Assembly (NCBI RefSeq): GCF_028435265.1
Contig: NZ_JAGTJK010000012.1
Span: 102,900-166,899 of the forward strand
DNA from: Polyangium jinanense
GTDB taxonomy: Bacteria > Myxococcota_A > Polyangia > Polyangiales > Polyangiaceae
DNA length: 64,000 nucleotides
Reading direction: 5' to 3'
A model generated the notes under the pieces. The model saw only the letters and a program-made list of their open reading frames with translations. It was not told where the DNA came from and made no database searches. Shown piece after piece: positions 1-26,945 of this stretch (positions are counted from its first letter, which is position 1; every line of letters begins with the position of its first letter). The position numbers and the translations under genes were made by a program.

Positions 1-159
1 CGGCGGGCTCGGGCGCGAGGAGCGGGGCGTTCGCTTGCGAATCGGACTTCGGCGTGGGGGAGCACGCGGCGAAGCCGAGGAGGGCGAAGCGGGCGAGGGA
101 CCGGGGCGCGAATCGAGGGGCCGAGGGGAAGGCCATGTGGCCGTGAGCGTGGATCGAAT

Positions 160-285
160 CGAGCAGGCGCGCTCGCGCCTTGGAGCGGCTTTTGCGTGTG
201 GAAATGGCGAATGCCTCACCGTGTTACCATGATGTCGTGAAAATGGTGTTCACGGGATTCGAGCTTTCCGTGGTAGGGTGATCTC
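160..285. repeat. Conserved ~125-bp non-coding element upstream of the HAD lipoprotein gene; a diverged (~75%) second copy lies at 2054-2180
   Basis: Direct alignment: ccttggagcggcttttgcgtgtgga..gtgttaccatgatg..ttcacgggattcgagctttc (copy 1) against ccctggagcggctttgggcgtgtgga..gtgttaccacgatg..ttcaccggattcgagctttc (copy 2). Confidence 0.6.
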
Positions 286-303
286 AGAAAGGGGATCCTT
301 GCC

Positions 304-1758
304 ATGATCAAGATTCGATCTTTTCTTCCCGTCGCGCTCGTTGTGGGGATGGCGACGCTCTCGGCGGCTTGCACGGACGAGGGAGAGAACGGCTCCGGAG
401 GCAACGGGGGAGCAGGCGCGACCGGTGGCACGGGCGGTACGGGCGGCACCGGTGGAATGGGCGGCACGGGCGGAATGGGCGGGGCCGGGGGAATGGGCGG
501 CGCGGGTGGAATGGGCGGCGTCGGCGGGATGGGCGGCGCGGGAGGCGCGATGGCCGCGCCGGACCTGGATTCGAATCTGATGTGGTACGGCCAGAACCGC
601 GAAGCGCTCGACAAGATGATCGACGAGGTCGGGGTGAACAGCGCGTCGTACGATCCGGCGCAGAAGCCCGTCGCGATTTTCGACTGGGACAACACGGTCA
701 TCAAGAACGACGTGGGGGATCTCGTGTTCTTCTGGCTCGTGAAGAACGACAAGATCATGCAGCCGCCGAACAAGGATTGGCGCACGACGAGCCGTTTCCT
801 GACGAATGACGCGCGGAACGCGCTGAACCAGGCGTGCGGAGCGCTGGTCGACGCGGGGATGCCGCTGCCAACGAGCACGAACGCGGAATGCGCGGACGAG
901 ATCCTCGCGGTGTATACGACGGGGAAGACGGTGGACGCGAAGGCGGCGTTCGAGGCGTGGAACTATCGCACGATGGAGCCTGCGTACGCCTGGGCCGCAG
1001 AGGTGCAGGCGGGATACACGCCGGCCGAGATGAAGGCATTCGCGAACACGGCGATCGAAGAGGGGCTCGCCGCGGCGGAGGGGACGAAGCAGACGATCGG
1101 GACGACGTCGGTCAATGCGTACGTGCGGATCTACGAGCAAATCAACGATCTGATCGACGTGATGCAGAAGAATGGGCTCGACGTGTGGGTGATTTCAGCA
1201 TCGCCGCAGCCGAACGTGGAGGCGTTCGCGGAGCGCGTGAACGTGGGCGCGGATCACGTGATCGCGATCCGGAACCTGCTCGACGGGGCCGGGAAGCTGA
1301 CGTACGACTTCGAGGGATGCGGATCGGTCGTGGATGGGTCGGGGAACGGCGCGAATCCCGTCGGCAATACGATGATCACGTACATCGAGGGCAAACGCTG
1401 CTGGATGAACAAGGTGATCTACGGGGTGACCGGGGCCGACGCGGAGAAGCCGAACGCGGACATGAAGAAGCGGCCGGTGTTCGGCGCGGGCGACTCGGAT
1501 ACGGACATCTCGTTCCTGCACGACGCGACGGTGCTGAAGCTCGCGGTGAACCGCAACAAGAACGAGCTCATGTGCAACGCATACGCGAACTACATGAACA
1601 AGTGGCTCGTGAACCCGATGTTCATCCTCCCAAACCCGCAGAAAGCCGCGCCGTACCCGTGTGCGACGACGGGCTGCAAGGACGCGTCGGGCGCCTCCGT
1701 TTCGTGCGTGAACGAGGTGGGTGAGGGGATCCCGGATCAGATGGATACGGTGTTCTGA
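304..1758 (+). CDS. Secreted lipoprotein, HAD-superfamily hydrolase/phosphatase (subfamily IB-like) with an N-terminal Gly-rich linker
   Basis: Signal peptide plus lipobox (LSAAC). HAD motif I DWDNT (DxDxT) and motif IV GDSDTD are present. The ORF is 484 aa with no internal stops. Confidence 0.8.
   Translation: MIKIRSFLPVALVVGMATLSAACTDEGENGSGGNGGAGATGGTGGTGGTGGMGGTGGMGGAGGMGGAGGMGGVGGMGGAGGAMAAPDLDSNLMWYGQNREALDKMIDEVGVNSASYDPAQKPVAIFDWDNTVIKNDVGDLVFFWLVKNDKIMQPPNKDWRTTSRFLTNDARNALNQACGALVDAGMPLPTSTNAECADEILAVYTTGKTVDAKAAFEAWNYRTMEPAYAWAAEVQAGYTPAEMKAFANTAIEEGLAAAEGTKQTIGTTSVNAYVRIYEQINDLIDVMQKNGLDVWVISASPQPNVEAFAERVNVGADHVIAIRNLLDGAGKLTYDFEGCGSVVDGSGNGANPVGNTMITYIEGKRCWMNKVIYGVTGADAEKPNADMKKRPVFGAGDSDTDISFLHDATVLKLAVNRNKNELMCNAYANYMNKWLVNPMFILPNPQKAAPYPCATTGCKDASGASVSCVNEVGEGIPDQMDTVF
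400..545 (+). repeat. In-frame tandem 12/24-bp repeats encoding (GGT/GGM)n Gly-rich linker
   Basis: ggcggcacgggcggaatgggcgg units are repeated and translate to GGTGGTGGTGGMGGTGGMGGAGGMGG. Confidence 0.7.
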
Positions 1759-2053
1759 TCGCGGAAACGAAAAGGGAGGGCTCCGCGCGGGGCCCTCCCC
1801 GGGTGTTCACGGGTTCCGGACGCAACGAAAGCCGAGCCCGGGGACCTCGTAGGTGTGAATGGCGGCGCCGCGGAAGGCGGTCTGGATGCCGAGGTTCGAT
1901 CGATTCCAGCCGCCGCCACGCACGACGTGCACGAGCACGCCGGGCTTTTGCACGTGGGGATCCGTGACGGCGTCGGCGCCATATTTGGCATAGGTGTCGT
2001 CGCACCACTCCCAGACGTTGCCCGCGAGGTCGTGGAGCGTGCCGGTGGGCCAG
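1527..2053. repeat. Segmental duplication A, copy 1 (527 bp; ~99% identical to 3048-3573). It spans the HAD gene 3' end, the convergent intergenic region and the FGE gene 3' end
   Basis: Base-by-base comparison found only a few mismatches (e.g. gtgaacccgatg vs gtgaccccgatg; cacgtgggg vs cacatgggg). Confidence 0.85.
1807..2053 (-). pseudogene. Truncated duplicate of the C-terminal ~80 codons of the FGE-sulfatase gene (intact copy 3328-4371)
   Basis: Lies inside duplication A copy 1. It has the same sequence as 3328-3573 but lacks the upstream 5' portion of the gene. Confidence 0.5.
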
Positions 2054-2180
2054 ATGCGGTCGCGCCCTGGAGCGGCTTTGGGCGTGTGGAGTGCGTGTGG
2101 AAATAGGGAATGGTTCAGCGTGTTACCACGATGTAAATAAAATTACGTTCACCGGATTCGAGCTTTCTGGCGCGGGATGA
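2054..2180. repeat. Second, diverged copy of the conserved upstream element (see 160-285)
   Basis: ~75% identity to 160-285 over ~120 bp. Confidence 0.6.
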
Positions 2181-2361
2181 CCTCTTGGGGGAGTGGGCGC
2201 GACCAGCTGCACGAACACATATCAATTGTTCAGTGTTGTGGCGCATGTCTGTTCCATACTATAGTTCCTTGCCTCTCTGCGAGGGCGTAGTGCTAGGTGG
2301 CACGGGGCGCAGCGCAGCCAGGTGCGGTCAGGATGATCGATAGCAGAGGACGAGGTGAATC

Positions 2362-2793
2362 ATGCCTTCGAGCAAGATCGACGCGATGATGTTCACGGTT
2401 CTCATCGGAATGGTGTCGGCAGGCTGCATCGCCGAGGACGGCTCCGTCCAAGACGAGTATGCGATGCGTGCAGAGGAAGAGGTCGAGGCGGTTGAGGAGG
2501 CCGCGCAGGCGCTCGATACATGCACGACGACCGGCGGCGGCACCTGGGGAAACATCATTACCCTCTGCAGGACGTCGAACAACAGCCTCTACGTCAAGAA
2601 ACGCGACGGTGGGGCGTTTACGTCTTCGGGGACGATGAAGCTCAAGACGTGGTTGGGTACCATCGACACGAGGCCCGTATACGTCGGACAAAAGGAGGTC
2701 TGGTTCGGCCCCCCGGGGCCGGGATGGTATTCTGCTCTCTACGAGTCTAATGCGCCCGGGACGGCTTATACGGGCGAGATTCAGGTCCAGTAA
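2362..2793 (+). CDS. Small secreted/lipoprotein (143 aa) of unknown function, encoded in a lower-GC islet
   Basis: GAGG RBS 7 nt upstream. Signal peptide with lipobox (VSAGC). Codon usage has many A/T-ending codons, unlike the surrounding genes. Confidence 0.55.
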   Translation: MPSSKIDAMMFTVLIGMVSAGCIAEDGSVQDEYAMRAEEEVEAVEEAAQALDTCTTTGGGTWGNIITLCRTSNNSLYVKKRDGGAFTSSGTMKLKTWLGTIDTRPVYVGQKEVWFGPPGPGWYSALYESNAPGTAYTGEIQVQ

Positions 2794-2829
2794 TGATCGT
2801 CTGCCCAGCGCCGCTACCCAAGCGGCGCT

Positions 2830-3047
2830 GGGCGGGTGGGATCAGTCGAGGCCGAGGCGCGCGCGGGCGTCGGCGTACGCGTCGCTCACCGAGAACACGA
2901 TGAGCTCGCGGGCCTCGGCATTGCGACCGATCCAGGTGAGGCGCTCCTTGCCGGACGCCGGAGGCTGGTTCGTGTGGCCGCCAGCCCAGGCAATGCCCGT
3001 GAGCGCGATGTTGGGATCACCGACCGCGAGCAAGCCCGCGCGCGCAC
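2830..3047 (-). pseudogene. Displaced ~99% identical copy (segment B') of the 3' end of the giant TPR gene (original 4331-4548)
   Basis: Direct alignment shows two mismatches in ~218 bp. The segment is joined to duplication A copy 2 at 3047/3048 with gcacgacg microhomology. Confidence 0.75.
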
Positions 3048-3279
3048 GACGGTGCTGAAGCTCGCGGTGAACCGCAACAAGAACGAGCTCATGTGCAACG
3101 CATACGCGAACTACATGAACAAGTGGCTCGTGACCCCGATGTTCATCCTGCCAAACCCGCAGAAAGCCGCGCCGTACCCGTGTGCGACGACGGGCTGCAA
3201 GGACGCGTCGGGCGCCTCCGTTTCGTGCGTGAACGAGGTGGGTGAGGGGATCCCGGATCAGATGGATACGGTGTTCTGA
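3048..3279 (+). pseudogene. Duplicate of the HAD lipoprotein gene 3' end (last ~77 codons), part of duplication A copy 2 (3048-3573)
   Basis: Near-identical to 1527-1758. It encodes TVLKLAVNRNKNELMCNAYANYMNKWLV(T/N)PMF..DQMDTVF with no start or upstream part. Confidence 0.75.
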
Positions 3280-3327
3280 TCGCGGAAACGAAAAGGGAGG
3301 GCTCCGCGCGGGGCCCTCCCCGGGTGT

Positions 3328-4371
3328 TCACGGGTTCCGGACGCAACGAAAGCCGAGCCCGGGGACCTCGTAGGTGTGAATGGCGGCGCCGCGGAAGGCG
3401 GTCTGGATGCCGAGGTTCGATCGATTCCAGCCGCCGCCACGCACGACGTGCACGAGCACGCCGGGCTTTTGCACATGGGGATCCGTGACGGCGTCGGCGC
3501 CATATTTGGCATAGGTGTCGTCGCACCACTCCCAGACGTTGCCCGCGAGGTCGTGGAGCGTGCCGGTGGGCCAGCTTCGCGCGCCCTTCGGATGCGAACG
3601 CACGGGCGAGGTGCCACCGCCGTGGCAGCCGGAGTCGCCTCCGGGCGAGACGAGGACACCAATGGTGAAATCGGCGTGCTCGCAGGTGGGTTCGTCGTTG
3701 CCCCAGGGCCATTTGCGTCCGTCGCCGCCGGTCGCCGCCCATTCCCATTGCGCCTCGGTGGGGAGGTCTTTGCCTTGGGCCTTGCAATACTTCTTGGCCT
3801 TGTCCCAGGAGACCTCGTTGGCGGGGTGATCGGGGCGGCGCGGATAGTTCGCAAAGACTTCGAGGGTCTTCGGCGGGTCGCAGGTCTTTTCGTCGACGCA
3901 TGGTTTCATGGCGGCGACGGTGACCTCGGTCTCGTCCATGCAAAACGGGCGCGTGAGGACGACGCGGTGCGGGCGATCGGAGTCGGGCTGGTGTCCCTTG
4001 CGGAGGCGGCGCGCGCCGCCATTCAAGGTAAAACCTTTGCCCATGACGAATCCGTCAGGGCCGGTTTTCGGGATGTAAACCTCGCCCGCAGGGCAATGCG
4101 GGACACACGCGCCCGTGGCCTCGTCGCAGCGCTCGATCGAGGCGCAGGTGACGCCAGCGCAGCGGGAAGGTTCGGGCGGGGGCGCGGCCGAGGGGAGGGG
4201 CGTGGGCGCCGGCGGCGGAGATGCCGCAGACGCGGGTGGGGTGGGCGCGGGGGAGGCGTCCGGGGAGGAGCAGGCGGCGGCCCCGAGGAGGAGGGCCGCC
4301 GCAGAGGAGAGCAGGCGCGAGGCCAAGCGAGGGCGGGTGGGATCAGTCGAGGCCGAGGCGCGCGCGGGCAT
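3328..4371 (-). CDS. Formylglycine-generating-enzyme (FGE)/sulfatase-modifying-factor family lipoprotein
   Basis: Lipoprotein signal (LLLGAAAC). Cys-rich N-terminal module. C-terminal FGE-sulfatase domain with signature residues (WEW, GGxWxWxxD-like, RGGxW, RCV). Confidence 0.85.
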   Translation of the reverse strand: MPARASASTDPTRPRLASRLLSSAAALLLGAAACSSPDASPAPTPPASAASPPPAPTPLPSAAPPPEPSRCAGVTCASIERCDEATGACVPHCPAGEVYIPKTGPDGFVMGKGFTLNGGARRLRKGHQPDSDRPHRVVLTRPFCMDETEVTVAAMKPCVDEKTCDPPKTLEVFANYPRRPDHPANEVSWDKAKKYCKAQGKDLPTEAQWEWAATGGDGRKWPWGNDEPTCEHADFTIGVLVSPGGDSGCHGGGTSPVRSHPKGARSWPTGTLHDLAGNVWEWCDDTYAKYGADAVTDPHVQKPGVLVHVVRGGGWNRSNLGIQTAFRGAAIHTYEVPGLGFRCVRNP

Positions 4372-7300
4372 CGGCGTACGCGTCGCTCACCGAGAAGACG
4401 ATGAGCTCGCGGGCCTCGGCATTGCGACCGATCCAGGTGAGGCGCTCCTTGCCGGACGCCGGAGGCTGGTTCGTGTGGCCGCCAGCCCAGGCAATGCCCG
4501 TGAGCGCGATGTTGGGATCACCGACCGCGAGCAAGCCCGCGCGCGCACCCCAGCCGTTCACCGCGGTGTTGAGGGTCGAGGCGCGGTTGCCGATGTTGGC
4601 GATGACGTCGGTCGCGAGCGTGCGCACCTGCGGATCGAGGCTCGCCGGGAGCGCCTTGGCGACGCGCGCCGACGCATCGTTGAGCTTGGCCGGGTCGACA
4701 CCTTGCGGGGCAAACCCGGGGCTCAGCGCCTTGAGGTACGCGGCGAGCAGCGGCCAGAGGTCGATCGGCGCGGTGCGCGCGAAGGCCGTGGCATTCGCCT
4801 GGACGACCTTGAGCGCGCGGTGAACGAGGAACGTGCGGACAGCCTCGTTCGTCGCGGCCACGAGCGGCGCGCCGAGCACGATCGTCGGTGGATGCGCGCT
4901 CGCTGCGACGCACACCGAGCCGAGCGTGGACGACTGCAGCACCTTGAGATCCTCGATCCCGTAGGCGCGTGCGAGCTCCTTGATCTCCTCGGCGAGGTGC
5001 GCCTGCGGGGGCGGGAAGGGCGTCGCGCGGACCGACGTGACGTCGAACGGCACGGCCGTGTCGAGCATCGGCCCAGTGCGCTGCAGGAGGTCGCGGAACG
5101 CAGGCGTCATCACGTCGGGCGCGACCAGCTCGTCGAGCGAGAGGTCGCCGGCCGCCACGCCCGCGCCCGGAAGATCGACCGCGCCGCCGTCGAGGGCCGC
5201 CACGCTGCCACGCGCGATGCGCGCGACCTCGGGCCTTCCGCGTAGATCGGCGACGGTGGCGACGGTGCTGAAGAGGTACGGCTCGAAGCGGCCGGTGCCG
5301 AGCGCGCGGCGCGCGTCGGCGACGGCACGATCGAGCAGGACGTTCGCAGCCTGCGCCTGATCGGTGCGCTGGTAGAAGCTCGCGAGCGCGCCGAGCGCGA
5401 CGTCGTCCTTGGGCCAGGTCTTGCGCGCCTGGAGCAAGGTCTGCTCGGCCTTCTTGAGGTCGCCCATCGCCTCGTAGATCTCGGCGAGCTGCGTCGTGCG
5501 ACGGCACTTCGCCTCGGGCTCCTCGACGTTGTTGATGAGGATCGTCTGCTGCTCGAGGGCCTTCGCCGTGTCGCCGAGGTTCTTGTAGAGGTCGACGAGG
5601 CGCTCACGCGCGGGCTCGTTGTTCGCGAAGCGCTTCAAGACCTCCTGGTAGGAGAGCTCGGCGCGCTCGGCGTTCGGCAACGGTCCGTTGTAGAGGTCGC
5701 CGAGGCGCATGTAGAGCTCGGCCTGGCGCTCGGGCTCCGCGACGAGGCGCGCGAGCCGGATCCAGGCCTGCTCCGCGCCGCCCCAGTCGTCTTCCCTCGC
5801 GCAGACGTCGGCAAACGCCGTCAGAGCCTCGACGTGGTCGGGGTTCTGATCGAGCGCCGCCGCGAGAGCCTGCTTCGCCGCCGCCGCGTCGCCGACGTCG
5901 GCGAGCGCGCGGCCACGCAGGACCTCCATCTCGACACGCTCGGCCGGATCGGTGACGGCGTCGAGGCGACGTTCGAGGAGCGCGGCGAGCTCGGCCCGCG
6001 CGCCACTCGCGACGTAGATCGCCTGTAAGCGCTGGAAGACGTCGAGGTACGAGGGATCAACCGCGAAGACGCTCTCGAAGGCGCCACGCGCGCGCTCGGT
6101 CTCGCTCGTCTTGTCGGCCCAGAGGACCGCGGCGAGGTAGAGGTTGCGCACGCGCTCCTCGGCCGTCGCGCTGGTCTGCGCGGCAGCTTCGAGCGTGGTC
6201 GCAGCCCCGACGAAGTCGCCGCTCTGCTCGAGGGCGCGGGCACGTTCGAGGTGCACCACGAGGTGACCAGGCACGAGCTCGATCGCCTTTTCGAGGAGCT
6301 CGCGGGCCTTCTCGGTTTGCCCCGCACGCGTCGCGGACTCGGCAGCGCGCAGCGAGAGCGTGGCGATCTCGGAGGCGCGCTCGGTGCGGTTCGCGAGCTC
6401 GAGGTCGGCTTCGAGCGCCGTCGCCTCGTCGCCGCGCGCGCGAGCATGCGCCGCCGTTTGGCGGAGCGCCCAGAGCCCGCGAGGCTCGTTGCGATAGGCG
6501 ATCTCGACCGGCTCGCGCGTCTCGTCCCAGCCGTGGATGCGGAGGCGGAGGCGCGCGGAGAGGTGCGCATGCGCGATGGCCTCGGGGCCTTCGAGCGTCC
6601 TCGCGAGCGTGAAGACGACCGGCTCGAGCTCCTCGTCGCGGCCGCCCGCGATGAGGGCGCTCGCCACGCGGCGGAGCGTCGGCAGGTGCGTAGGCGTCTC
6701 TTCGAGGATCGTGCGGCGCCAGAGCAGGCCGCTCGCCGCGTCGCCACGGCCGATCTCGTCGAGCTCGGCGAGGCGCTCGTACGCCTGGAGCCGCTCGACG
6801 GAATCCTCCGTCGCGCGGGCGTACTGCAAGAGGCCGTCGACGAGATCACTCGTGCCATGGCCCGCGAGCGCGGCGCGGTACGCGCAGAGCGGCGCGAGGA
6901 GCGTCTCGCCCGCGGCGATGGCTTGCCGCGAGAGGGCCGCGGCCTTCTCGAGGTCGCCGTCGCGCTCGTACTCGAGCGCGGCTTCGAGCGAGAAGCGCGC
7001 GGCGTCGGAGCCCGTGGAGGCAGCCGCGCGCTCGGCACGCCAGGCCGCGCGATCCGCGGGGCGCTCCGGCGAGAGGCGCTCGTAGAGCTCGCGCAGGCCG
7101 ATGTCGTCGGGACGCGCCGTGAGCGCCTGCGCGAGCAGGCCCGCCGCATGCGCCGCGCCTTCCGGCGTGATGAGGGCTTCGCGCACGAAGTCGCGGGCCT
7201 GCTCGATCGGATCCTCGCTCGCCTGACGGCGGAGGTGGAGCCACTCGATGAGGCCGTCGCGATCGCCCACGCCGCGCGCCGTGCGCTCGCCGAGGTGCAC

Positions 7301-9379
7301 GGAGAGCGGGAGGCGCGCGTCGATCTCGGCCGCGCCGCGGAGGAGTTTGTCGCGTTCGTCGTCGATCGAGGTGTCGGGGACCTCGACCTCGAGCAAGCGG
7401 ATCGCCGCCTCCGTGAGCAAGAGCGCGGCGCGCGTGCCAGGCTCGATCGACTGCGCGAGGCCGGCGAGGACACTCGAAGCGGTCGCGGCGTCGGCGCCCG
7501 TCGCGCGAGCGCGCGTGGCGCCTTCGTGGGCCGGATCCGATTGGCGCGCGCGATCGTACCCTTCGGCCGCGAGCTCCGCGTCGCCCGCGAGCTCGGCGAG
7601 GAGCGCGCTCGCCAGCGCGCTGTCGCGATCCCCGTCCTCTGCACCGCGCCACGCGGCGACGGCGCGGGCGACGTTCGCGCCAGCCTTCGACTCGAGGTCG
7701 AGCTCGAGCTTGAGCGCGCGGCCCGTGCCGCTGTCGGCGGCGTGCTCGGTGTAGCCGAGGATCGCCGCCGCGAGGGCGTCGTTCTCGCCGAGGGGCTTGC
7801 CGTCGGGGCGAGCGTCGGCGAGGGCGCGGCCGAGCGCCGCGGAAGCACGCGCGCTCGGGCTGCCAGCGCCGATGACGCTGCTCGAAGACGCGTCGGTTTC
7901 GCGGGAGGCCGCGCTCGCCGCGGCGAGCAGCGGCGCGAGCTCGTCGTCGCCCGCGGCCGCGTCGACGGCCTGGTCGAAGAGCTCGCGCGAGCCTCCGGTG
8001 AGCGCCGTCAAGGAGAGGCGGTCGGCAGCCGAGAACGCGATCGTGTCGCTGCCCTCGACGGCCGCGCGCGCCGCGGCGGCGTCGCCGAGCTCGATCGCGC
8101 GGGCCGCGAGGGCGCGCCGCGCGTCGGCGTCGTGCGTGCCGTCGAGCGCGCCGCGCAGGGCCTCGATCGAGCCCGGACGCGTGTCCTTGCGCGCGGCCGC
8201 GAGCATGCCCGCGAGCCAGCCCGCGCCGCCCTTGAGGGAGGCGGTGCTGCGCAGGCGCCCGAGGCTCGACACCGCGAGGGACACGTCGCCCGCTTCGAGC
8301 GCGGCGCGCGCGCGGAGGAGCGCGTCGTACGCGGAGACGACACCGCGGATGCCACGCGGCACCACGCCGCGGTGGATCGCGACCTGCGTGAACGCGTCGC
8401 GCAGCGCCGAGAGCTCGCTCGTTTCCGGCGCGCGAACCTTCGTGAAGGCGTCGTCGGCGCTGCCGAGCGCCTCGGAGAAGCGCTGCACGTGCGGGCGCGG
8501 ATCCGTGGGCAGCGAGCGCTGCGCGAGGTCCATGCGCTTCTGGGCGCCTTCCTCGTCCTCCTGGCGGATGCGCAGGACCTCGGCGCCGAGCACGGCGGCG
8601 TGGGCCCGCGCGGCCGGCGTCGGCGCGATGCGCGCCTCGGTGTCGAGCACCTCGATCGTGCCTTGCCAGTCCTGATCACGCGCGAGGAGCCCGCGGATCT
8701 GGCGATGCGCGAGCGGAGAGCTCGGCGCGAGCTCGCGCGCCTCGGCCGCGATCGCGCGCGCTGTCTGCTCCTCGCCCGCCATCGCGTAGATCTCGGACAC
8801 CGCCACGAGCGCTCGCGCGCGCGCGGCCTTGTCCTCCATCGCCTCGGCTTCGGCGCGCAGCCACGCGGCCCGCTCGGCCCACGCGTCACGCTGCTGCGTG
8901 CGCACGAGGTGCGCGCTCGCGTCCTGCTCGTCGTCGAACGTGGGCGCTCCCGCGACGGGCGCGCGCTCGCGCCGCGACGGCGCGATCGGCACGTCGTCCT
9001 CGGCTTCCACCTCGGCCACGACCGCGGCCACCGGCGTCTCCACGACGGAAGGTCCCGCGGGCGTCACCGCGTCGTGGGCGCTCGTGTCCGCGGCCGGCAG
9101 CGTGTTCGTCTCGTCGACGAGGGCCTCCACGAGCCCGTCGTCCTCGGGCCTCGTGGGCAACTCGTGCCGCACGTCCTCCTTCATGCGCGCGGTCACCTCG
9201 CCGATCTCCGGCTCGCTGCCGGAGTTCCGCAGCGACGCCATCAGCTCGTCGGGCACGTGCGCCATGATGGTCGCAGCGTCGTCGTCGTCGTCTTCGATCG
9301 CGTCCTCTGCGAGGTCGATCTCGTCGTCTTGGGGCTCGCTCACGGGACCTTGATCCTTTGCTCCAGAGTCGTGGCTCAC
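4343..9379 (-). CDS. Giant TPR/helical-repeat protein (~1678 aa) with an acidic N-terminal region; start reassigned to the GTG overlapping the upstream stop
   Basis: The 2419-aa six-frame ORF is mostly real, but its first ~740 codons are an Arg-rich shadow of the upstream gene. Real protein features begin at VSHDSGAKDQ../MAHVPDELMASL. The GTG at 9377-9379 overlaps the TGA (GTGA) of the upstream gene. TPR-like Ala/Leu-rich repeats run throughout. Confidence 0.7.
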   Translation of the reverse strand: MSHDSGAKDQGPVSEPQDDEIDLAEDAIEDDDDDAATIMAHVPDELMASLRNSGSEPEIGEVTARMKEDVRHELPTRPEDDGLVEALVDETNTLPAADTSAHDAVTPAGPSVVETPVAAVVAEVEAEDDVPIAPSRRERAPVAGAPTFDDEQDASAHLVRTQQRDAWAERAAWLRAEAEAMEDKAARARALVAVSEIYAMAGEEQTARAIAAEARELAPSSPLAHRQIRGLLARDQDWQGTIEVLDTEARIAPTPAARAHAAVLGAEVLRIRQEDEEGAQKRMDLAQRSLPTDPRPHVQRFSEALGSADDAFTKVRAPETSELSALRDAFTQVAIHRGVVPRGIRGVVSAYDALLRARAALEAGDVSLAVSSLGRLRSTASLKGGAGWLAGMLAAARKDTRPGSIEALRGALDGTHDADARRALAARAIELGDAAAARAAVEGSDTIAFSAADRLSLTALTGGSRELFDQAVDAAAGDDELAPLLAAASAASRETDASSSSVIGAGSPSARASAALGRALADARPDGKPLGENDALAAAILGYTEHAADSGTGRALKLELDLESKAGANVARAVAAWRGAEDGDRDSALASALLAELAGDAELAAEGYDRARQSDPAHEGATRARATGADAATASSVLAGLAQSIEPGTRAALLLTEAAIRLLEVEVPDTSIDDERDKLLRGAAEIDARLPLSVHLGERTARGVGDRDGLIEWLHLRRQASEDPIEQARDFVREALITPEGAAHAAGLLAQALTARPDDIGLRELYERLSPERPADRAAWRAERAAASTGSDAARFSLEAALEYERDGDLEKAAALSRQAIAAGETLLAPLCAYRAALAGHGTSDLVDGLLQYARATEDSVERLQAYERLAELDEIGRGDAASGLLWRRTILEETPTHLPTLRRVASALIAGGRDEELEPVVFTLARTLEGPEAIAHAHLSARLRLRIHGWDETREPVEIAYRNEPRGLWALRQTAAHARARGDEATALEADLELANRTERASEIATLSLRAAESATRAGQTEKARELLEKAIELVPGHLVVHLERARALEQSGDFVGAATTLEAAAQTSATAEERVRNLYLAAVLWADKTSETERARGAFESVFAVDPSYLDVFQRLQAIYVASGARAELAALLERRLDAVTDPAERVEMEVLRGRALADVGDAAAAKQALAAALDQNPDHVEALTAFADVCAREDDWGGAEQAWIRLARLVAEPERQAELYMRLGDLYNGPLPNAERAELSYQEVLKRFANNEPARERLVDLYKNLGDTAKALEQQTILINNVEEPEAKCRRTTQLAEIYEAMGDLKKAEQTLLQARKTWPKDDVALGALASFYQRTDQAQAANVLLDRAVADARRALGTGRFEPYLFSTVATVADLRGRPEVARIARGSVAALDGGAVDLPGAGVAAGDLSLDELVAPDVMTPAFRDLLQRTGPMLDTAVPFDVTSVRATPFPPPQAHLAEEIKELARAYGIEDLKVLQSSTLGSVCVAASAHPPTIVLGAPLVAATNEAVRTFLVHRALKVVQANATAFARTAPIDLWPLLAAYLKALSPGFAPQGVDPAKLNDASARVAKALPASLDPQVRTLATDVIANIGNRASTLNTAVNGWGARAGLLAVGDPNIALTGIAWAGGHTNQPPASGKERLTWIGRNAEARELIVFSVSDAYADARARLGLD

Positions 9380-12300
9380 CGGACACCCATGCCGAGCTTC
9401 TTGCGCAGCTCGAGGTAGCTGGGGGAAAGCACGAACGAGAGAAGGCGACGCGAGCGCTCGCTCTCGGTGACCACCGAGCCGAGCTGATCCCGCGGCACGC
9501 TCACGATGTCGCTCAGAACGATCGAGACGTCGCCGGCGGCGATCACCGCCATGCGATCCAGGCTGCGACGCGCCGCGTTCGTCCACGCGCGTGCATCCTG
9601 CTTGCTCGACACGACCTTCTGGCAGACCTCGCCGATGCTCTTGCGGATCTTGCGCGAGATCTCCTTGTGCACCGCGCGCTGGATCTCGCCGTAGACCGCG
9701 TAGCCGGGGTTTTGGACCTTGATGTCGACCTCGTTGCACGCCGCGATGACCACGGACGCGACCGTGGCCTCGTCGCGCGTGCGGAGCGAGGTGATCCCGC
9801 GCCGCAGGGCGAAGACCGTGCGTGCGATGGCCGAGCGCGCCGCCGCGTCGAGCGGCGTCGTGATCCCGGGCCCGACGACGATCGCGGGCACCTCGCCGGC
9901 GACGCCGTGCACGCCCTTCGGCTCGGGGCCGCCCACGTAGAGCTCGAAGTCGCCCTCGAAGCCCACCGCGCCCATCCACTCGGCGACCGCCACGCGCAGC
10001 GGGTGGCCGCCGCGCGAGTCGATGCGCTCCTTCTTGCCGACGTTCAGCGAGCCGAGCGTCGGGCCGAGCGCGAGCGTCACCGTCTCGGCCATGAGCACGA
10101 AGAGCTCCGCGATCGGGCCGTTGTCCTCCGGATCGGCGATCTCGGCCATGGCCTTCGCGTCGAGCACGATCTGCGGCCGCGTCGCGACGCGACCGTCGAT
10201 CCGTTTGAGCTCCGTCGAGATCGCGTCGTCGTCGCGACCGAGCGAGACGAGGCAGCCGAGCGTCGCCTGGCGGAGCGCCGCGTCCTGCCCGGCCTGCGCG
10301 ATCTTCGCGAGCCGCTCGACGCGGTCGGCGTCGCACGGATCCTCGGAGAGCTTCTGCACGAGCACGTTCTTCGCGCGGCCGAGCAGGCGCTGACGGAGCG
10401 ACGCCTCGTAGCTCGTGGTGAGCACGAGATCGAGCGCCTCGCCGTCGTCCGGCGACTCGTCGAGCAGCTTCACGACCGCGCTCTCGGCCTTGAGCGGATC
10501 GTTCTGCTTGTCGCGCCAGATGGCCATCGCGAGCCGCGCGGCCTCCATGCGACCCTCGCGCTTGTCGCGCTCCTGCATGAGCTGCTCGAGGATCGACGTC
10601 GCGCGCGACCACGCGCCCGTCTTCGCCGCGACGCGCGCGAGGCGCTCGCGCACGGGCGGCGTGGACAGGCCCGCCTCGTGGAGACCCACGAGCACCTTGA
10701 GCGCCTTCTCCGGGGCGTTCAGCTTGTTCTCGTAGATGTCCACCGCCGCGACGCCGGACATCAGCCGCTGCTGCGCCGGCGCCTCGCCGATGCCCGAGAG
10801 CCGACCGAGCAGGTCCGCCGCCTCGGCGAACTTGCCCATCGTGATCGAAATCTCGCCGGCGAGCGCGAGCGCGCCGACGTGATCGGGCTCGAGCATCGTG
10901 ACGTTCTCGAGCGCCGACAGCGCGCCCTCGCGATCGCCCTTCTTGCGAAGCACGCGCGCGCGCTCCCAGAAGAGCTTGCCGATTTCCGCCTCGTCGTCGG
11001 CCACGTCGAGACGGCGCCCGATGATGTCGAGCAGCTTGTCGTCCTCGTTGCGCGAACGGACGCGGCGGAAGAGTTTGTCGAAGGCGACCGAACGGCTCGG
11101 ATCCCGATCGAATGCGCGGGCGAACGCGATCTCCGCGTCGTCGTGCGCGTCGGTGTGATCGAGCAGGATGATGCCCGCGGACTCCCAGAACGCCGCGCCG
11201 CGCGTGTCGTCCTTGCTGAGGGCGCCGAGCTGCGCGAGCGCGAGCGCCGTGGAGACGTGGTCGCCGAGCGCCTCGCTCGCCGCGCGCACGCCCTCCCACG
11301 ACACGATGTCGTCCTGGCGGCGCTCGACGGCCGCGCGGAAGGTGGCGAGCGCCGCCTCCACGTTGCCCGCCGCGAGCTCCGACCAGCCGGAGAGCGCCGA
11401 AGCGTCGCTGCCCGCATCCTCGCCGAGCGCCCCGCCCACGTTCTGCAGGGCGAAGGCGCGGCGGCGCGGATCGCAGCCGGGCATCGCGAGCTCCAGGTTC
11501 GCGAGGCGCGTCGCGTCCGACGTGCCGGCGAGCAGGGGCTGCGGCGTGCTCGGCTGATCCAGCATCGCCACGAGCGCGGCCGACGCGTCCATCGCCGACC
11601 ACGGCTCGTCGTCGAGGAACGTTCCCACCGCGCGGCGCGCGGCCACCTCGGCATCACGATCCTTCGCGGCGAGCGCCGCCCCGAGCCACTCGAGCGCGGC
11701 GTAGAGCTTCGGCTCCGCGTCCGCCCAGGCCGCCGCGCGCGACACCGCCGCGCCCGGGTCCTGATCGACCGTGCGCGCAAGGCGATACCGCTCCGCGCGG
11801 GCGATCGCCGTCGCTTCGTCGCCCTGGTCTTCCAGACGATCGAGCGCGCGATCGATCGCCCCACGATCACTCTGCGCCTCGGGCCACGTCAGGCGCGCGA
11901 GCCCCGCGGCGACCGTGATGTCGCCCGAGCCCTCGGCCTCCGCCGTCTCCAGCGCCGTGAGCGCCTCGGGGCGGTCACCCGCCTCGCCCTGGCCCACCTC
12001 CAGGCCGAAGCGCTCGATCGCGATGCTCGCCGGATCGGCGCCCGCCTCCGCTGCCGTGAGCAGCGCGCGGCGACGACCGTCGAGGCTGTCGGGATCGGCC
12101 CCGCGCAGCGCCCACGCGAGCAGCGCCGCGGCCGCCTTCGACGCGCTGCCGCGCGCCTGCTCGATGAGCTCGATCGTCTTCTGCCGATCGCCGATCCGCC
12201 ACGTGAGAAGCGCGGCTTCCAGGTAGAGCGCGGCGCCGAGGTCGATGTCCTCGGTCGCCGTCGCGCATGCCGACAGGATGTTCGACGCGGCCGCGAGGTC

Positions 12301-14205
12301 CCCTGCGCGGCGCTCGAGGTCCGCGAGGAAAAGCGCCACCACCTCGTCCGACGGCTGCGCCTCGTGCAGCTCGCGCAGTCGCGCGCGCGCCGCATCGAGG
12401 TTGCCCGCGCGCGTGCTGCGCAGTGCAGCGACCACCCAGAGGCCCCGCGCGAGGCTCGGGTCCGTCTCGACCTTCGCGAGCTCCTCGATCGTCGCCGCGA
12501 TCGGGCGGAACGCGCTCACCTCGCCCGGCGCCGGCTTCTTCGCGCCGAGCGCGTAGGCCGCGAGCACACGCCCGAGCCACGTGGAGGCATCACCGTCGAG
12601 CGCCGCGAGCTTCGAGAACGCCTCGGCCGCGCCGTCCGCATCGCCTCGGATCGAGCGGCTCCGGCCGAGCTCGAACCAGAGGCTCGCCTCTTCGCCCGGC
12701 TCCGCGCCGCTCGCCACGAGCTCCGCCGTCACCTGCTCGTACCACGCCGCATCGCCCCGAACCGACGCGAGCGTGCGGGCGATCCGCGCGAGCAGCGGCG
12801 CCGGCGTACCGAGCGCCGCGGCCCGACCGAGCGCCGCCTTCGCGGCGTCCGAGTCTCCGGCCTGGCAGGCCCACACGTAGGCCGCGATGATCTCCGCGCG
12901 CGCCTTCGCCTCGTTCGTCGGGCACGACGCGCCCGAAGCTTCGAGCGATCGCGCGAGCGCCGCCGGATCCTGCGCGTCGCTCAAGAGGTCGAGCTCGAGC
13001 GCGCGCGCCATGATCGACGCCGGGTCTGCTTCGAGCGCGCTGCGCAGCGCGGCGAGTGCGCCATCCCGGTCGTTGTCGAGCATCGCCGCCTCGGCGATAC
13101 GCAGCCACAGCGCCGCCGCGGCCGGGCCCGGGGTGCCGCGCTCGAGCTCGGCCCGCGCGAGATCCGCCGCGCCCTTCGCGTCGCCGTTCGTCTCCAGCGA
13201 TGCGAGCCGCGAGCGCGCGATGAGCGACGACTGCGGGAGCTGCTCGGCGGCTCGCGCGAGCAGCTTCACCCAGCCTTCTTGATCCCCCGCGCGCCGCTTC
13301 AGCTCTGCCGCGCGCAGCCACGCGTCGGCTGCGTACTCGGCGCGCCGCGCGTAGCGGGGCACGCCGCTCGCGTCACCGCGCTCTGCGTCTTCGAGGGCCT
13401 CCTCGATGAGCTGCGCTTGACCTTCGAGGGCCCGCGCGAGCGCCGTCGTGTTGTCCTCCCGCGCCGCGATCGCTTCGAGCGTCACCTGCGACCGGAAACG
13501 GCCCTGACCATCCAGCGCGGCGGCGGCGTCGATCAGATCGTAGGCGCGCTGCGTGTCGCCGGCCTTCGCCGACAGCTCCGCGAGCTCGATGAACAGGAAC
13601 GCCTTCCACGTCGGATCGGATGCGAGCTCGGCGCGCGCCTCGATGGCGCGCATGCGGCCGGGCAGATCACCGTCCTTCGCCGCGATGAGCTCGAGCTCGA
13701 GCCACGGCGTCGGGTCCTCGGGGCTCGCGCCGACGGCCTCTTCGAGCGCTTCTTTTGCGCCCGGAAGATTCTGCTCGTAGTCCTGCAAGAACGCGGCGCG
13801 CTCCCAGAACGCGCGGGCACGCTCCTCCGGGGTCACGGAGGCGCGCGTCAGCGCTTCGAGCAGTTTCCCGAGGTTCTTGATGGACTTGCGTCGGGTCAAG
13901 ATCCGGACGAGAGCCTCGAGCGACTCGCGGTTTTGCGGATCCGCGTTGAAGGCGGCGAGGTAGTCCCGCGCGGCGGACGGCTCCTCCCCGTGCTTCTCTT
14001 CGAGGACGCCGCACTCGTGCAGGAGCAGCGCTTGGAGCGCGTTGTCCTCCTGCGCGGCGTGCTCGGACCGTAAACGATTGAGGAAGGCCGCCGCATCCTC
14101 GGCCTGCCCCGTGGGCATGGGTGTCTCTACCGTCATTGGGCTCGACGCGCCTCCCGCGGAGACGGGTTTCTGGTCCATTGCATGCTGCGTGTGGAGACTA
14201 GCCAA
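9376..14205 (-). CDS. Giant TPR/HEAT-like helical repeat protein (1609 aa)
   Basis: Continuous ORF with an Ala/Leu/Glu/Arg-rich helical-repeat composition. It is translationally coupled to the downstream TPR gene. Confidence 0.7.
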   Translation of the reverse strand: MASLHTQHAMDQKPVSAGGASSPMTVETPMPTGQAEDAAAFLNRLRSEHAAQEDNALQALLLHECGVLEEKHGEEPSAARDYLAAFNADPQNRESLEALVRILTRRKSIKNLGKLLEALTRASVTPEERARAFWERAAFLQDYEQNLPGAKEALEEAVGASPEDPTPWLELELIAAKDGDLPGRMRAIEARAELASDPTWKAFLFIELAELSAKAGDTQRAYDLIDAAAALDGQGRFRSQVTLEAIAAREDNTTALARALEGQAQLIEEALEDAERGDASGVPRYARRAEYAADAWLRAAELKRRAGDQEGWVKLLARAAEQLPQSSLIARSRLASLETNGDAKGAADLARAELERGTPGPAAAALWLRIAEAAMLDNDRDGALAALRSALEADPASIMARALELDLLSDAQDPAALARSLEASGASCPTNEAKARAEIIAAYVWACQAGDSDAAKAALGRAAALGTPAPLLARIARTLASVRGDAAWYEQVTAELVASGAEPGEEASLWFELGRSRSIRGDADGAAEAFSKLAALDGDASTWLGRVLAAYALGAKKPAPGEVSAFRPIAATIEELAKVETDPSLARGLWVVAALRSTRAGNLDAARARLRELHEAQPSDEVVALFLADLERRAGDLAAASNILSACATATEDIDLGAALYLEAALLTWRIGDRQKTIELIEQARGSASKAAAALLAWALRGADPDSLDGRRRALLTAAEAGADPASIAIERFGLEVGQGEAGDRPEALTALETAEAEGSGDITVAAGLARLTWPEAQSDRGAIDRALDRLEDQGDEATAIARAERYRLARTVDQDPGAAVSRAAAWADAEPKLYAALEWLGAALAAKDRDAEVAARRAVGTFLDDEPWSAMDASAALVAMLDQPSTPQPLLAGTSDATRLANLELAMPGCDPRRRAFALQNVGGALGEDAGSDASALSGWSELAAGNVEAALATFRAAVERRQDDIVSWEGVRAASEALGDHVSTALALAQLGALSKDDTRGAAFWESAGIILLDHTDAHDDAEIAFARAFDRDPSRSVAFDKLFRRVRSRNEDDKLLDIIGRRLDVADDEAEIGKLFWERARVLRKKGDREGALSALENVTMLEPDHVGALALAGEISITMGKFAEAADLLGRLSGIGEAPAQQRLMSGVAAVDIYENKLNAPEKALKVLVGLHEAGLSTPPVRERLARVAAKTGAWSRATSILEQLMQERDKREGRMEAARLAMAIWRDKQNDPLKAESAVVKLLDESPDDGEALDLVLTTSYEASLRQRLLGRAKNVLVQKLSEDPCDADRVERLAKIAQAGQDAALRQATLGCLVSLGRDDDAISTELKRIDGRVATRPQIVLDAKAMAEIADPEDNGPIAELFVLMAETVTLALGPTLGSLNVGKKERIDSRGGHPLRVAVAEWMGAVGFEGDFELYVGGPEPKGVHGVAGEVPAIVVGPGITTPLDAAARSAIARTVFALRRGITSLRTRDEATVASVVIAACNEVDIKVQNPGYAVYGEIQRAVHKEISRKIRKSIGEVCQKVVSSKQDARAWTNAARRSLDRMAVIAAGDVSIVLSDIVSVPRDQLGSVVTESERSRRLLSFVLSPSYLELRKKLGMGVR

Positions 14206-14385
14206 ACGGTGCGTCGGGAGTAAAGCGTGCTCGCGACGGATCGCGACGATCGCGCGCCTTGCCGCGATGCGCGGGTATTCCCGTGCGGCACGTGTTCGAC
14301 GCGGCCGGTCCCGATCGTGGGCGAGAGCCCCGCCCGTGGACCCCGGTGGGGGCGCCTTCCCGGCCTCGCCTGCTCGCTTGCTCGC

Positions 14386-14682
14386 TCAGGCCTTGCCGAG
14401 CATCGCGTCGAGCTTTTCGTGCAGCTTCGACTCGACCACGGGGCGCATCGCGCGGAGCAGGAGCGGCAGCTCCACCCGGATCCGCACGGCCTCCGCGGTC
14501 ACGCGCACCGACCCCCGCGTCCCCTTCGCAGGCCCGTTTGGCGCGTCGAGCCGGAGCTCGTCGCCCTCCCAGCGCCAGCGCACCCCGCGGCGTTGTTCCA
14601 GCCGCCTCGCCAGGTCCTCGGCGCGCCGCCGCGCCGCGTCCTCGCTCATGCCGTGGGGCCTCAGGATGTCGATCTGCGCCAT
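14386..14682 (-). CDS. Polyhydroxyalkanoic acid system family protein (PHA_gran_rgn-like, 98 aa)
   Basis: MAQIDILRPHGMSEDAARRRAEDLARRLEQR..WEGDELRL..GSVRVTAEAVRIRVELPLLLRAMRPVVESKLHEKLD matches the ~90-aa PHA-system protein family pattern. Confidence 0.7.
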   Translation of the reverse strand: MAQIDILRPHGMSEDAARRRAEDLARRLEQRRGVRWRWEGDELRLDAPNGPAKGTRGSVRVTAEAVRIRVELPLLLRAMRPVVESKLHEKLDAMLGKA

Positions 14683-14707
14683 CGCGTCCGTCCCCTTCGT
14701 ATCGTGC

Positions 14708-15298
14708 CTACTCGATCCGTGTCACGATCCAGTAGCCGCGCGGCGTGTCGACGACCTCGCTCACCGCGCCCTTGGCCAGGCTGAAGAGAACATACTCCGG
14801 CGCGGGCTCCAAAATTCCGCGCGGCAGCCGCCCCGCGTTCTCCATCGAGCCCTTGTCGCCCTTCGCCACCGCCGCCTTGAAGTCCGTCTTCGCCTCCTCG
14901 GCGAGCTGCTTGGCGAGCGTCAGCGCCTCCTCGCGCGGCCGCGCGTTCGGGAGCGCGCCCTGCGCGCCCTTGTACTGCACGAGGATCACCCCGAACACGA
15001 CCGACTTCGGCACCTCACCCGCGAGGGGCGGCGGCGCCTCGCCCGTGAGCAGCAACGTCCCGCCCGCGTCGACCGGACCCGCCGGTTCCACCTCGCTGCC
15101 AGGCTCGCCGCTCGCGCCTGCATCCGAGGGCTCCGCGCCTCCGTCCGCCGCCGTCGCCGCGCCCGCGTCGCTCGGCGCGCCTGCATCGGCCGTCGCCGTC
15201 TCGGTGGACGGGCTTCCGCCGCGACCGCGCGGGACGACGACGAGCGCGATGGCCCCGAGGACCAACACGGCGAAGAGGAAGGCGGTCGCTTTCTGCAT
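14708..15298 (-). CDS. Membrane-anchored PpiC/parvulin-type peptidyl-prolyl isomerase
   Basis: N-terminal TM anchor and Ala/Gly/Asp-rich linker. C-terminal rotamase-like domain (VILVQYKGAQGA...GYWIVTRIE). Confidence 0.6.
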   Translation of the reverse strand: MQKATAFLFAVLVLGAIALVVVPRGRGGSPSTETATADAGAPSDAGAATAADGGAEPSDAGASGEPGSEVEPAGPVDAGGTLLLTGEAPPPLAGEVPKSVVFGVILVQYKGAQGALPNARPREEALTLAKQLAEEAKTDFKAAVAKGDKGSMENAGRLPRGILEPAPEYVLFSLAKGAVSEVVDTPRGYWIVTRIE

Positions 15299-15482
15299 GG
15301 GGCGAGCGCGTTAGCATATTTCCCCGGCCCAGCGGAAGCGAGAGGCGCGAATCCACGCCGCTCGGCCGCCCGCTCGGCCCGCGCTCGCCGCCCTCCTCGT
15401 GTCGCAAAAGAGCCGCGAAGCCTCAAACCCTGGTAGAAGTGAGCAACGCGAACCATCGCGCGCCCCAGGGCCCCTCGAAGGC

Positions 15483-19898: not shown

Positions 19899-20017
19899 CC
19901 CGCGTTTCCTTCCTCGCCGAGCCAGACCCCAGAAAGCACTTCCTTCCATCCGCTGGCACGTGGTACAGGACCCTACCACGATTGTGCAGTGTGTACTGCT
20001 ACAGTGGATGAGGGGTT

Positions 20018-26619: not shown

Positions 26620-26945
26620 CGCTCTTCCGGTTGCACACCTCAGCTACCCAGCGGGTCGTCCTCAGCGAGCCGGCAGGCCGTCCTCGTCCTTCCGCAGGCC
26701 GTCGTCACCTACGCGGCAAGCCGTCCTCGTCCTTCCGTAGGCCGTTCTCATCTACGCGGCAGGCCGTCCTCACCTAACCGGAAGGCCGTCCTCACCTACC
26801 CGGCAGGCCGTCCTCGTCCTCCCGCAGGCCGTCGCCACCTACCCGGCAGGCCATCCTCAGCCTCCGAGAGCCTGGCCTCAGCGAGGCAAAAGCCCATCCT
26901 CGTCCTCCCGCACCCCGTCCTCAACCTCCGCCCCTGACGAGATCG
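26620..26945. repeat. Non-coding tandem array of ~43-bp units (each built from two ~21-bp half-units sharing the 10-mer ggccgtcctc)
   Basis: cggcaggccgtcctcgtccttccgcaggccgtcgtcacctac-like units appear ~7 times head-to-tail with point variation. Confidence 0.75.

Follow-up and report, generated by a model that had tools for sequence, protein, structure and literature searches.

The locus described here lies within the first part of the window, by which we mean the whole 64-kb stretch of Polyangium jinanense DNA that was analyzed, and its features are listed in Table 1. All three resident coding sequences, HAD, FGE and TPR, are full-length. The HAD protein matches Pfam PF12710 (E 8e-11) and, only below their curated cut-offs, the NCBIfam HAD-IB models; its orthologues in relatives share 84-95% amino acid identity. 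The FGE protein, which has a signal peptide, matches Pfam PF03781 (E 1.5e-38) and its likely start codon is the TTG at 4326-4324, while the B2 copy alone has an ATG at 4371, as a derived change. Upstream of U lies a further gene, 2-136(-), whose translation shows a lipoprotein signal peptide, and the terminator hairpin in A1 is bidirectional and folds at -31.8 kcal/mol. The HAD and FGE sequences, together with that of a chimeric ORF (2836-3279), had no entry in the protein collection searched, and the lipoprotein and HAD proteins of the window found no exact match in the contig index. The chimeric ORF had been put forward as a product of rearrangement; it is mechanically present, but no evidence marks it as a gene.

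Table 1. Features of the duplicated locus, with positions counted along the window.
Feature	Position	Strand	Remarks
U, HAD upstream region	160..303	+	shared with the divergent lipoprotein gene starting at 136(-)
HAD-IB-like lipoprotein gene, intact, 484 aa, Gly-rich linker	304..1758	+	Pfam PF12710
A1, repeat copy 1	1526..2053	.	functional HAD 3' end, terminator hairpin 1774-1799, dead FGE fragment 1807-2053(-)
I, 776-bp insert	2054..2829	+	no counterpart in any relative
U', diverged U homologue	about 2049..2192	+	~75% identity to U
Small orphan lipoprotein gene, 143 aa	2362..2793	+	lipobox VSAGC
Terminator-like hairpin	2800..2836	+	13-bp perfect stem, 2803-2815 / 2821-2833
B1, repeat copy 1	2830..3047	.	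dead TPR 3' fragment and region just upstream of FGE start
A2, repeat copy 2	3047..3574	.	dead HAD fragment 3049-3279, second terminator, functional FGE 3' end
FGE-sulfatase-domain lipoprotein gene, intact	3328..4326	-	Pfam PF03781
Y, FGE segment	3575-4330		756 bp; its place in the first unit is taken by I
B2, repeat copy 2	4331..4548	.	functional 3' end of TPR gene
TPR gene, 2419 aa	4343-11602	-	

Two pairs of direct repeats organize the locus, and they are the only repeats of at least 98% identity in the 64-kb window. A1 and A2 are identical at 525 of 528 bases (BLAST E 0), with three mismatches at 1613A/3134C, 1629C/3150G and 1954G/3475A, and B1 and B2 at 216 of 218 (E 1e-108), with two mismatches at 2869G/4370A and 2896C/4397G; the longest identical runs inside the repeats measure 324 and 151 nt. 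The original prediction of two segmental duplications of about 99% identity around an insert thus holds, and its segments were right, though two of the ends were off by one (A is 1526-2053 / 3047-3574). The predicted gene tails of FGE (1807-2053, minus) and HAD (3049-3279, plus) are likewise present. A third fragment, the TPR tail at 2842-3047(-) in B1, had not been listed; it comprises 68 codons and a stop. Every substitution in the functional copies is synonymous, and the single non-synonymous one, an N-to-T change, falls in the dead HAD tail of A2.

Five Polyangium relatives (L001, L002, L003, L004 and L010) carry an uninterrupted HAD-FGE-TPR order, with A and B once each and without the insert, and the gain of 1,521 bp is therefore specific to this lineage; a comparison with insert-free sister strains had been proposed as a check of the duplication, and these relatives agree with it. 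In L010, positions 1-2068 of the window correspond to 9698-11756 and positions 3047-6000 to 11214-14166. Polarized by outgroups, the differences between copies comprise one derived change each in A1, A2, B1 and B2, and one that is ambiguous. Divergence between copies amounts to 5/746 (0.67%; 0.6-0.9% per repeat), compared with about 4-5% to the nearest species. The sliding identity profile is unremarkable, and a recent exchange with a relative across FGE was rejected on this ground.

The three junctions, J1 (2053/2054), J2 (2829/2830) and J3 (at 3047), all fall within 1 kb. J3 joins the end of B (equivalent to 4548) to the start of A (equivalent to 1526) in direct orientation. An 8-nt microhomology, gcacgacg, had been claimed for this joint, which overstates an overlap of really 1-4 nt: parental B reads gcgcgcac/ccc (slash at the joint) and both parents share only c, the 4-nt overlap gcac being obtained only if a 5-nt slip of cgacg is assumed. 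At J1, CAG is shared with U, which need not be the donor sequence. The last four nucleotides of the terminator-like hairpin, GGGC, are also the first four of B1 and mark J2, and the symmetry of the hairpin suggests GGGC as the overlap there.

These junctions also bear on whether the structure could be an assembly artefact, be it a collapse, as the original prediction had allowed, a chimera, a mis-threaded small circle together with wild-type chromosome, or a mixed population. Identical runs of 324 and 151 nt are resolved by short-read assemblers only with read pairs, and the assembly graph also permits HAD-A-Y-B-A-I-B-TPR; the order of the units, with I in the first and FGE in the second, rests on the assembler having linked variants across these runs. 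However, each 31-mer spanning a junction is unique in the window and must exist in the reads, and the adjacency of B end and A start, which no ancestral arrangement contains and whose two sides have 4 nt in common at most, is not a join that a k-mer graph can invent. Each copy moreover carries its own derived substitutions, and two GenBank accessions exist for the cassette gene. Collapse loses copies and does not create three unique junctions, so we regard an artefact as very unlikely.

The insert I matched nothing in 11 related loci save for the similarity of U' to U, has no second copy elsewhere in the 64-kb window and found no match in plasmid and phage collections. Its lower GC content, noted earlier, is real but mild (the gene has 60%, HAD 64.5% and the window as a whole 68.5%), and a strongly foreign composition was rejected, since the GC3 of the lipoprotein gene (78%) is that of the TPR gene. 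The lipoprotein gene is the only ORF in I having homologues. Its 143-aa product is 100% identical to the P. jinanense protein P0001, the only member of its family on record for the species; the gene has two GenBank accessions, counted on two contigs, which probably represent two assemblies. The family is small, with four other homologues among 5.8 billion proteins and 21 cluster representatives among 1.84 billion. Searches of the protein against Pfam, NCBIfam and PHROGs, and a metagenome scan with the lipoprotein alignment, gave no match, and a literature search on Polyangium jinanense found no matching paper. A small beta-sandwich is predicted for the C-terminal ~90 aa, from a structure model with a pLDDT of 65 that gives weak DUF3244-like matches and, in a PDB fold search, a generic small beta-sandwich. 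The hairpin behind the gene folds at -39.7 kcal/mol (z -6.7), and homologous lipoprotein genes elsewhere likewise end with GC-rich hairpins. The contig of the closest homologue, P0002, was examined as a possible layout of upstream lipoprotein, U' and small lipoprotein; its intergenic region measures 337 bp vs 338 bp predicted for such a layout. However, no 191-aa partner emerged when the N-terminus of the upstream lipoprotein was used as query, and this assignment is probably wrong.

A diverged copy of the HAD upstream element had been reported between A1 and B1, and U' is indeed a true homologue of U (160-294), with 75% identity (nhmmer E 1e-33) and an internal 12-nt tandem duplication. U itself is conserved at 89-96% in the five Polyangium relatives, and U' is about equally distant (73-76%) from the U of every species. 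Because U' is 25% diverged as against 0.7% for A and B, the idea that it was copied from the local U alongside A and B was rejected. An origin through a diversity-generating retroelement was rejected as well, the mismatches between U and U' being of all types and not adenine-specific; no reverse transcriptase was matched among the ORFs other than TPR scanned in 1-4400. A conserved hairpin common to both elements was also discarded, as the palindromes are out of register when the alignment is inspected by eye. Nothing credible for U or U' was returned by Rfam on 1-5000, a promoter scan found nothing, and a metagenome scan with a 47-nt U/U' consensus pattern gave no match. We infer that the new lipoprotein gene is expressed from U'.

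Could the lipoprotein gene have arrived on a mobile element, such as an IS, a MITE, an integron cassette or an integrative island? Homologues of the gene lie in differing contexts in Sorangium and a Polyangiaceae MAG, one of these loci adjoining an rve fragment and a McrBC system, and U' is bracketed by a direct repeat of 13 nt (2049-2061 / 2317-2329) as well as by an inverted repeat of 10 nt (2058-2067 / 2195-2204). Against such an insertion, no transposase, integrase or attC-like site was seen and no tRNA lies in 1-20000; the duplicated flanks, 528 and 218 nt in length, greatly exceed the size expected of target-site duplications; apart from the one copy U', U-like sequence is confined to the region upstream of HAD, and is thus not multicopy; and DNA similarity to the homologous loci stops at the borders of the coding sequence. 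We find a mobile element hardly credible.

Our tentative preference is for a lineage-specific duplication-insertion that arose by illegitimate, recombinase-free joining, most likely in two steps. Starting from the ancestral order still present in the relatives, HAD(+), terminator, FGE(-) and TPR(-), a 1,501-bp segment whose borders lie within the 3' ends of HAD and TPR would first have been duplicated in tandem, creating the B-end/A-start join at 3047 with its 1-4 nt overlap; this end-to-start adjacency is the diagnostic join of a tandem duplication. In the redundant upstream unit, 756 bp of FGE, namely its 5' two-thirds and start codon, would then have been exchanged for the 776-bp cassette through two more short-overlap joins at 2053/2054 and 2829/2830. 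Along with the small lipoprotein gene, the cassette would bring a promoter-like region and the gene's terminator hairpin. The units as they stand are not equivalent, I occupying the first and Y the second, and only their ends A and B are doubled. The net result would be one self-contained gene placed between HAD and FGE, with HAD, FGE and TPR retaining their full coding sequences and native flanks, and with the repeats and the three gene tails left as scars. We infer both the order of the steps and an outside origin of the cassette. Tandem duplications are unstable, and the second step would need to strike one copy before the duplication was lost, which is a point against this history. It also leaves unaccounted for the near-equal sizes of the replaced and replacing segments (756 and 776 bp), and that a cassette from elsewhere carries a homologue of the HAD upstream region found 1.9 kb away.

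The original prediction had offered Campbell-type integration or an MMBIR-like event; both fit the topology, but the simpler tandem duplication route was omitted. One-step template switching and Campbell integration would each yield the same final structure, and the sequence fixes no order of events. Replicative repair in a single step, through serial template switches (MMBIR/FoSTeS-like, or SDSA with filler DNA), is possible, if on the doubtful side. A broken or stalled 3' end at 2053 in FGE would have moved to the cassette and run to the foot of the hairpin, then to B (4331-4548), to the start of A (1526) and back onto the original template. A single event would thereby account for everything, including the restoration of every resident gene, and it agrees with the direct orientation of all added pieces, two of them short copies from within 2.5 kb, with the 1-4 nt overlap at every joint, and with the position of J2, which coincides with the 3' foot of a very stable hairpin, a plausible site of polymerase dissociation. 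However, a template for the cassette is required, and the window holds no second copy and the species one family protein; U', at 25% divergence, was not copied from the local U; and overlaps of 1-4 nt barely exceed what chance would give in a genome of 70% GC. That the whole structure came from one break-repair or replication-restart event, with exogenous DNA as filler taken up through three microhomology template switches, seems to us somewhat unlikely. The filler would then run exactly from the promoter/leader homologue to the 3' foot of the terminator hairpin, and local recopying would regenerate the resident genes.

Campbell-type integration would begin in a sister strain of the arrangement HAD-A-I-B-TPR, in which the cassette had replaced part of FGE; a fragment A-I-B from this donor would have been circularized by end joining (the joint at 3047) and would have entered a wild-type chromosome through one homologous crossover within A. 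In line with this, A1 and A2 form 528-nt direct repeats of the homology block around I and B1, the added unit is a circular permutation of A-I-B, and the 0.6-0.9% differences between copies could be allelic differences at strain level. Both the 13-mer at 2317-2329 and the FGE-like bases found at J1 (ATGCGGTCGC) look like the FGE allele of L001-L003 and not like that of the window itself, yet the J1 bases are equally readable as derived from U', with 11 of 15 matching U. The recurrence of the J1 13-mer at 2317-2329 hints at a layered history or a donor strain, and could also be the trace of an extra template switch. Campbell integration needs the most steps of all (donor replacement, transfer, circularization and crossover), and no donor allele was found among the 11 related loci, no episome, att site, integrase or vector sequence was seen at the locus, and plasmid, phage and metagenome searches were empty. 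We consider it unlikely.

Myxobacterial genomes are very large, and many of their genes are lineage-specific. The locus provides a natural example of an apparently foreign orphan gene added between convergent genes with no recombinase and with its neighbors undamaged, the duplicated gene ends acting as buffers for them, and the ancestral state is kept in five sister genomes. It can also serve as a test case of tandem duplication vs template switching vs end joining in myxobacterial genome growth. If true, the single-event reading would mean recombinase-free gene acquisition that is "scarless for the neighbors" in a myxobacterium.

Work of the Roth laboratory reportedly describes RecA-independent tandem duplications with short-junction joins in Salmonella and Escherichia coli. 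As in those duplications, a head-to-tail unit is found here with a novel end-to-start join of few-base overlap, and the genes cut by the unit ends are intact on the outer sides. Unlike them, the units are unequal, 756 bp having been swapped for a 776-bp cassette in the first, and whereas laboratory duplications are quickly lost, the structure here has persisted to 0.67% divergence. The concept of FoSTeS is said to be the subject of a published review. Clustered breakpoints, short overlaps and nearby sequence copied in direct orientation are shared with MMBIR/FoSTeS, but one piece is apparently non-local and there are no inverted segments. Repeated template switching has been proposed for the amplification of E. 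coli lac, and complex duplications have been so interpreted (PMC3161906); that amplification is selected, in contrast to the natural isolate studied here.

In Campbell-type integration, a single crossover of circular DNA leaves the homology block as a direct repeat on either side of the insert. Such repeats flank the insert here, but there is no replicon, vector, att site or integrase, and the "circle" would consist of chromosomal pieces and the cassette only. Homology-facilitated illegitimate recombination in bacteria integrates foreign DNA with illegitimate joints. In yeast, small-fragment-driven amplification is known in which incoming fragments can set the borders of a duplication (PMC3521702). 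These last two systems depend on a homologous anchor or on 20 nt or more of homology, whereas the overlaps here measure 1-4 nt and no crossover took place at the one longer similarity, that of U' to U (75%). Taken together, the event is of a known kind, a fairly ordinary product of illegitimate recombination, and represents no new kind of system.

Two near-identical segmental duplications had been claimed at this locus by the original prediction, and both were borne out when the window was searched for repeats and compared with itself by BLAST: repeat A (copies A1 and A2; 528 nt, 3 mismatches) and repeat B (copies B1 and B2; 218 nt, 2 mismatches), each in direct orientation. These pairs are the sole repeats of at least 98% identity within the 64-kb window, the remainder being diverged intragenic domain repeats; the diverged tandem repeats (65-92%) at 58400-63600, 49372-49823, 44250-44900 and 26640-26920 are probably repeated domains inside large genes. 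A 776-bp insert (I), single copy in the window, lies between A1 and B1, and the overall structure reads X-A-I-B-A-Y-B-Z, where Y is a segment of the FGE gene and X and Z are the outer flanks. Repeat A comprises the 3′ end of the HAD gene, a bidirectional terminator hairpin and the 3′ end of FGE, and repeat B the final 68 codons of the gene that the original prediction named TPR, together with the bases immediately upstream of the FGE start. Any given copy thus serves one gene and is a dead remnant of another, and HAD, FGE and TPR are all complete despite the rearrangement; each would also retain its native terminator and upstream sequence.

Features of the locus and differences between repeat copies (window coordinates; relatives served as outgroups for polarity)
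Feature	Position	Strand	Remark
HAD-family lipoprotein gene (HAD)	304-1758	+	
Repeat copy A1	1526-2053		
FGE tail	1807-2053		dead fragment in A1
Insert I	2054-2829		
143-aa lipobox protein gene	2362-2793	+	in I
Repeat copy B1	2830-3047		
TPR tail	2842-3047		dead fragment in B1
Repeat copy A2	3047-3574		
HAD tail	3049-3279		dead fragment in A2
FGE-sulfatase-domain lipoprotein gene (FGE)	3328-4326	-	
FGE segment Y	3575-4330		
Repeat copy B2	4331-4548		
2419-aa ORF (TPR)	4343-11602	-	
A1/A2 difference	1613 / 3134		derived in A2
A1/A2 difference	1629 / 3150		derived in A1
A1/A2 difference	1954 / 3475		polarity ambiguous
B1/B2 difference	2869 / 4370		derived in B2
B1/B2 difference	2896 / 4397		derived in B1

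Scanning the HAD protein against species-representative genomes gave 11 Polyangium/Polyangiaceae loci, among them five close relatives (L001, L002, L003, L004 and L010) with 85-96% nucleotide identity to the window. In all five, window positions 1-2068 and 3047-6000 align in colinear order to stretches that overlap each other, A and B are single-copy and the insert is absent, so the 1,521-bp gain is lineage-specific. Four of the more distant Polyangium relatives (L005, L006, L007 and L011), compared over window 1758-4343, lack FGE and have the TPR 3′ end ~70 bp from the HAD end, which indicates that the convergent HAD/TPR junction acquired genes more than once (at least twice). In the HAD lipoprotein, the Gly-rich GGxGG linker (390-550) cross-matches a Gly-rich tract in L002 (7200-7650) and L003 (7520-7920) that belongs to a large upstream ORF in the relatives (1503 aa in L010).

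The functional copies carry synonymous changes, and the sole non-synonymous change falls in the dead HAD tail. Copies differ by 0.67%, compared with ~4-5% to the nearest species; the duplication-insertion postdates the split from that species, yet is not brand new. One derived change affects annotation: the ATG listed as the FGE start (4369-4371) is a G-to-A change unique to B2, reading ACG in B1 and all outgroups, and the true start is probably the TTG at 4326-4324, yielding the lipoprotein signal MASRLLSSAAALLLGAAAC. Assembly collapse, which the original prediction had allowed for, is made very unlikely by the copy-specific derived substitutions and by three junction sequences unique in the window, all of them beyond an assembler's power to invent. 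With no more than 4 nt in common between the end of B and the start of A, that adjacency could not have been created by a k-mer graph. The insert gene has two GenBank accessions (MDC3956729.1 and MDC3984792.1), counted on two contigs; their numbers differ by ~28,000, a gap larger than a single proteome, from which we infer two assemblies. The order of the two units (with I and with FGE) still depends on how the assembler connected variants on either side of stretches of 324 and 151 nt in which the copies are identical. What the locus shows is a genuine, complex structural variant of a type already known: a duplication-insertion via illegitimate joining, carrying a rare orphan lipoprotein gene.

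The 143-aa lipoprotein shares its entire sequence with a Polyangium jinanense protein (100% identity) and matched no Pfam, NCBIfam or PHROGs family; its own family numbers 5 proteins in 5.8 billion and 21 cluster representatives in 1.84 billion. Members in Sorangium and a Polyangiaceae MAG occupy unrelated contexts, one adjoining McrBC and an rve fragment, and structure prediction gives a small beta-sandwich, with weak matches only. The lower GC noted for this gene is present but mild, with GC3 equal to that of TPR. A source within Polyangiaceae is plausible; metagenome scans and plasmid and phage collections gave no match. The gene is predicted to come with its own upstream region and terminator. 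Recombination between A1 and A2 would remove the cassette precisely, so its persistence to 0.67% divergence suggests tolerance or selection.

Upstream of this gene, the insert carries U′, a homologue of the HAD upstream region U (nhmmer E 1e-33, ~75% identity). U′ is roughly equidistant from the U of every species compared; given this and the low identity, the local U was not its template when the 99% repeats arose. No further U-like sequence turned up in the window or among 17 retrieved loci, including upstream of the lipoprotein homologues. U′ contains a 12-nt tandem duplication (2079-2102; GGGCGTGTGGAG / TGCGTGTGGAAA), and a perfect 10-nt inverted repeat (2058-2067 / 2195-2204) flanks its core. 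U itself (160-294) shows 89-96% conservation in five species, on a par with coding DNA, contains the palindrome CGTGAA-N7-TTCACG and gave no Rfam match or sigma-70-like site; it may act as a leader or as a site for regulator binding.

At the first joint (J1, 2053/2054), CCAG ends the FGE tail, and the U′/U alignment begins at ~2051, where U reads GCAG. At the second (J2, 2829/2830), the B homology starts with GGGC, which also makes up the final four base pairs of a perfect 13-bp hairpin 3′ of the lipoprotein gene; GC-rich hairpins also terminate homologous genes elsewhere, so this one is probably native to the cassette, and it would also halt antisense transcripts entering from B1, where the FGE upstream region is duplicated. 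At the join of B end to A start (J3, 3047), parental B reads gcgcgcac/ccc and parental A ctgcacgacgc/gacggtg, an overlap of 1 base without indels or of gcac if a 5-nt cgacg slip is allowed; the 8-nt microhomology proposed earlier was overstated. Overlaps of 1-4 nt are what end joining or template switching usually leaves, and they lie only slightly above chance in 70% GC DNA. No transposase, integrase, tRNA, att-like site or vector sequence was found at the locus (tRNA scan of 1-20000; plasmid and phage collections). Target-site duplications were ruled out for the flanking repeats, 528 and 218 nt being far too long.

The 13-mer GCCAG(A/G)TGCGGTC occurs at J1 (2049-2061) and at 2317-2329, a direct repeat 268 bp apart that brackets U′, and nowhere else in the window (2 matches, 0.22 expected). 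What P. fumosum FGE has at exactly the J1 site is identical to the second copy; the window's intact FGE and L010 have a different allele there, a +4/-4 compensated change. FGE codons just past repeat A (3575-3587 and equivalents in L010 and L001-L004) read PKGARSW in the window and L010 versus PKGDRAW in L001; this small patch by the breakpoint is hypervariable between species. Recurrence of the 13-mer possibly reflects chance, a two-layer insert history or an FGE fragment of another strain. This third reading would speak for Campbell integration of a circularised A-I-B from a strain with the cassette already in place of Y, a route that we rank third and consider improbable, as it takes more steps than the others and presupposes a donor allele that was not seen.

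We tentatively rank first a tandem duplication of the 1,501-bp A-Y-B segment, with its join point at J3, after which the cassette would have replaced Y in the redundant upstream unit via J1 and J2; such duplication is the commonest bacterial rearrangement, and it would have made the later hit harmless. Ranked second, and rather doubtful, is a single replicative repair with three template switches (from 2053 to the cassette, to B, to the start of A), which accounts for everything in one event, including J2 at the hairpin foot, but requires the cassette in the cell as template. The original interpretation is partly supported: template switching and Campbell integration, as it suggested, are both compatible with the structure. 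Complex events in E. coli have been read as template switching (PMC3161906), and the single-repair route at this locus resembles them.
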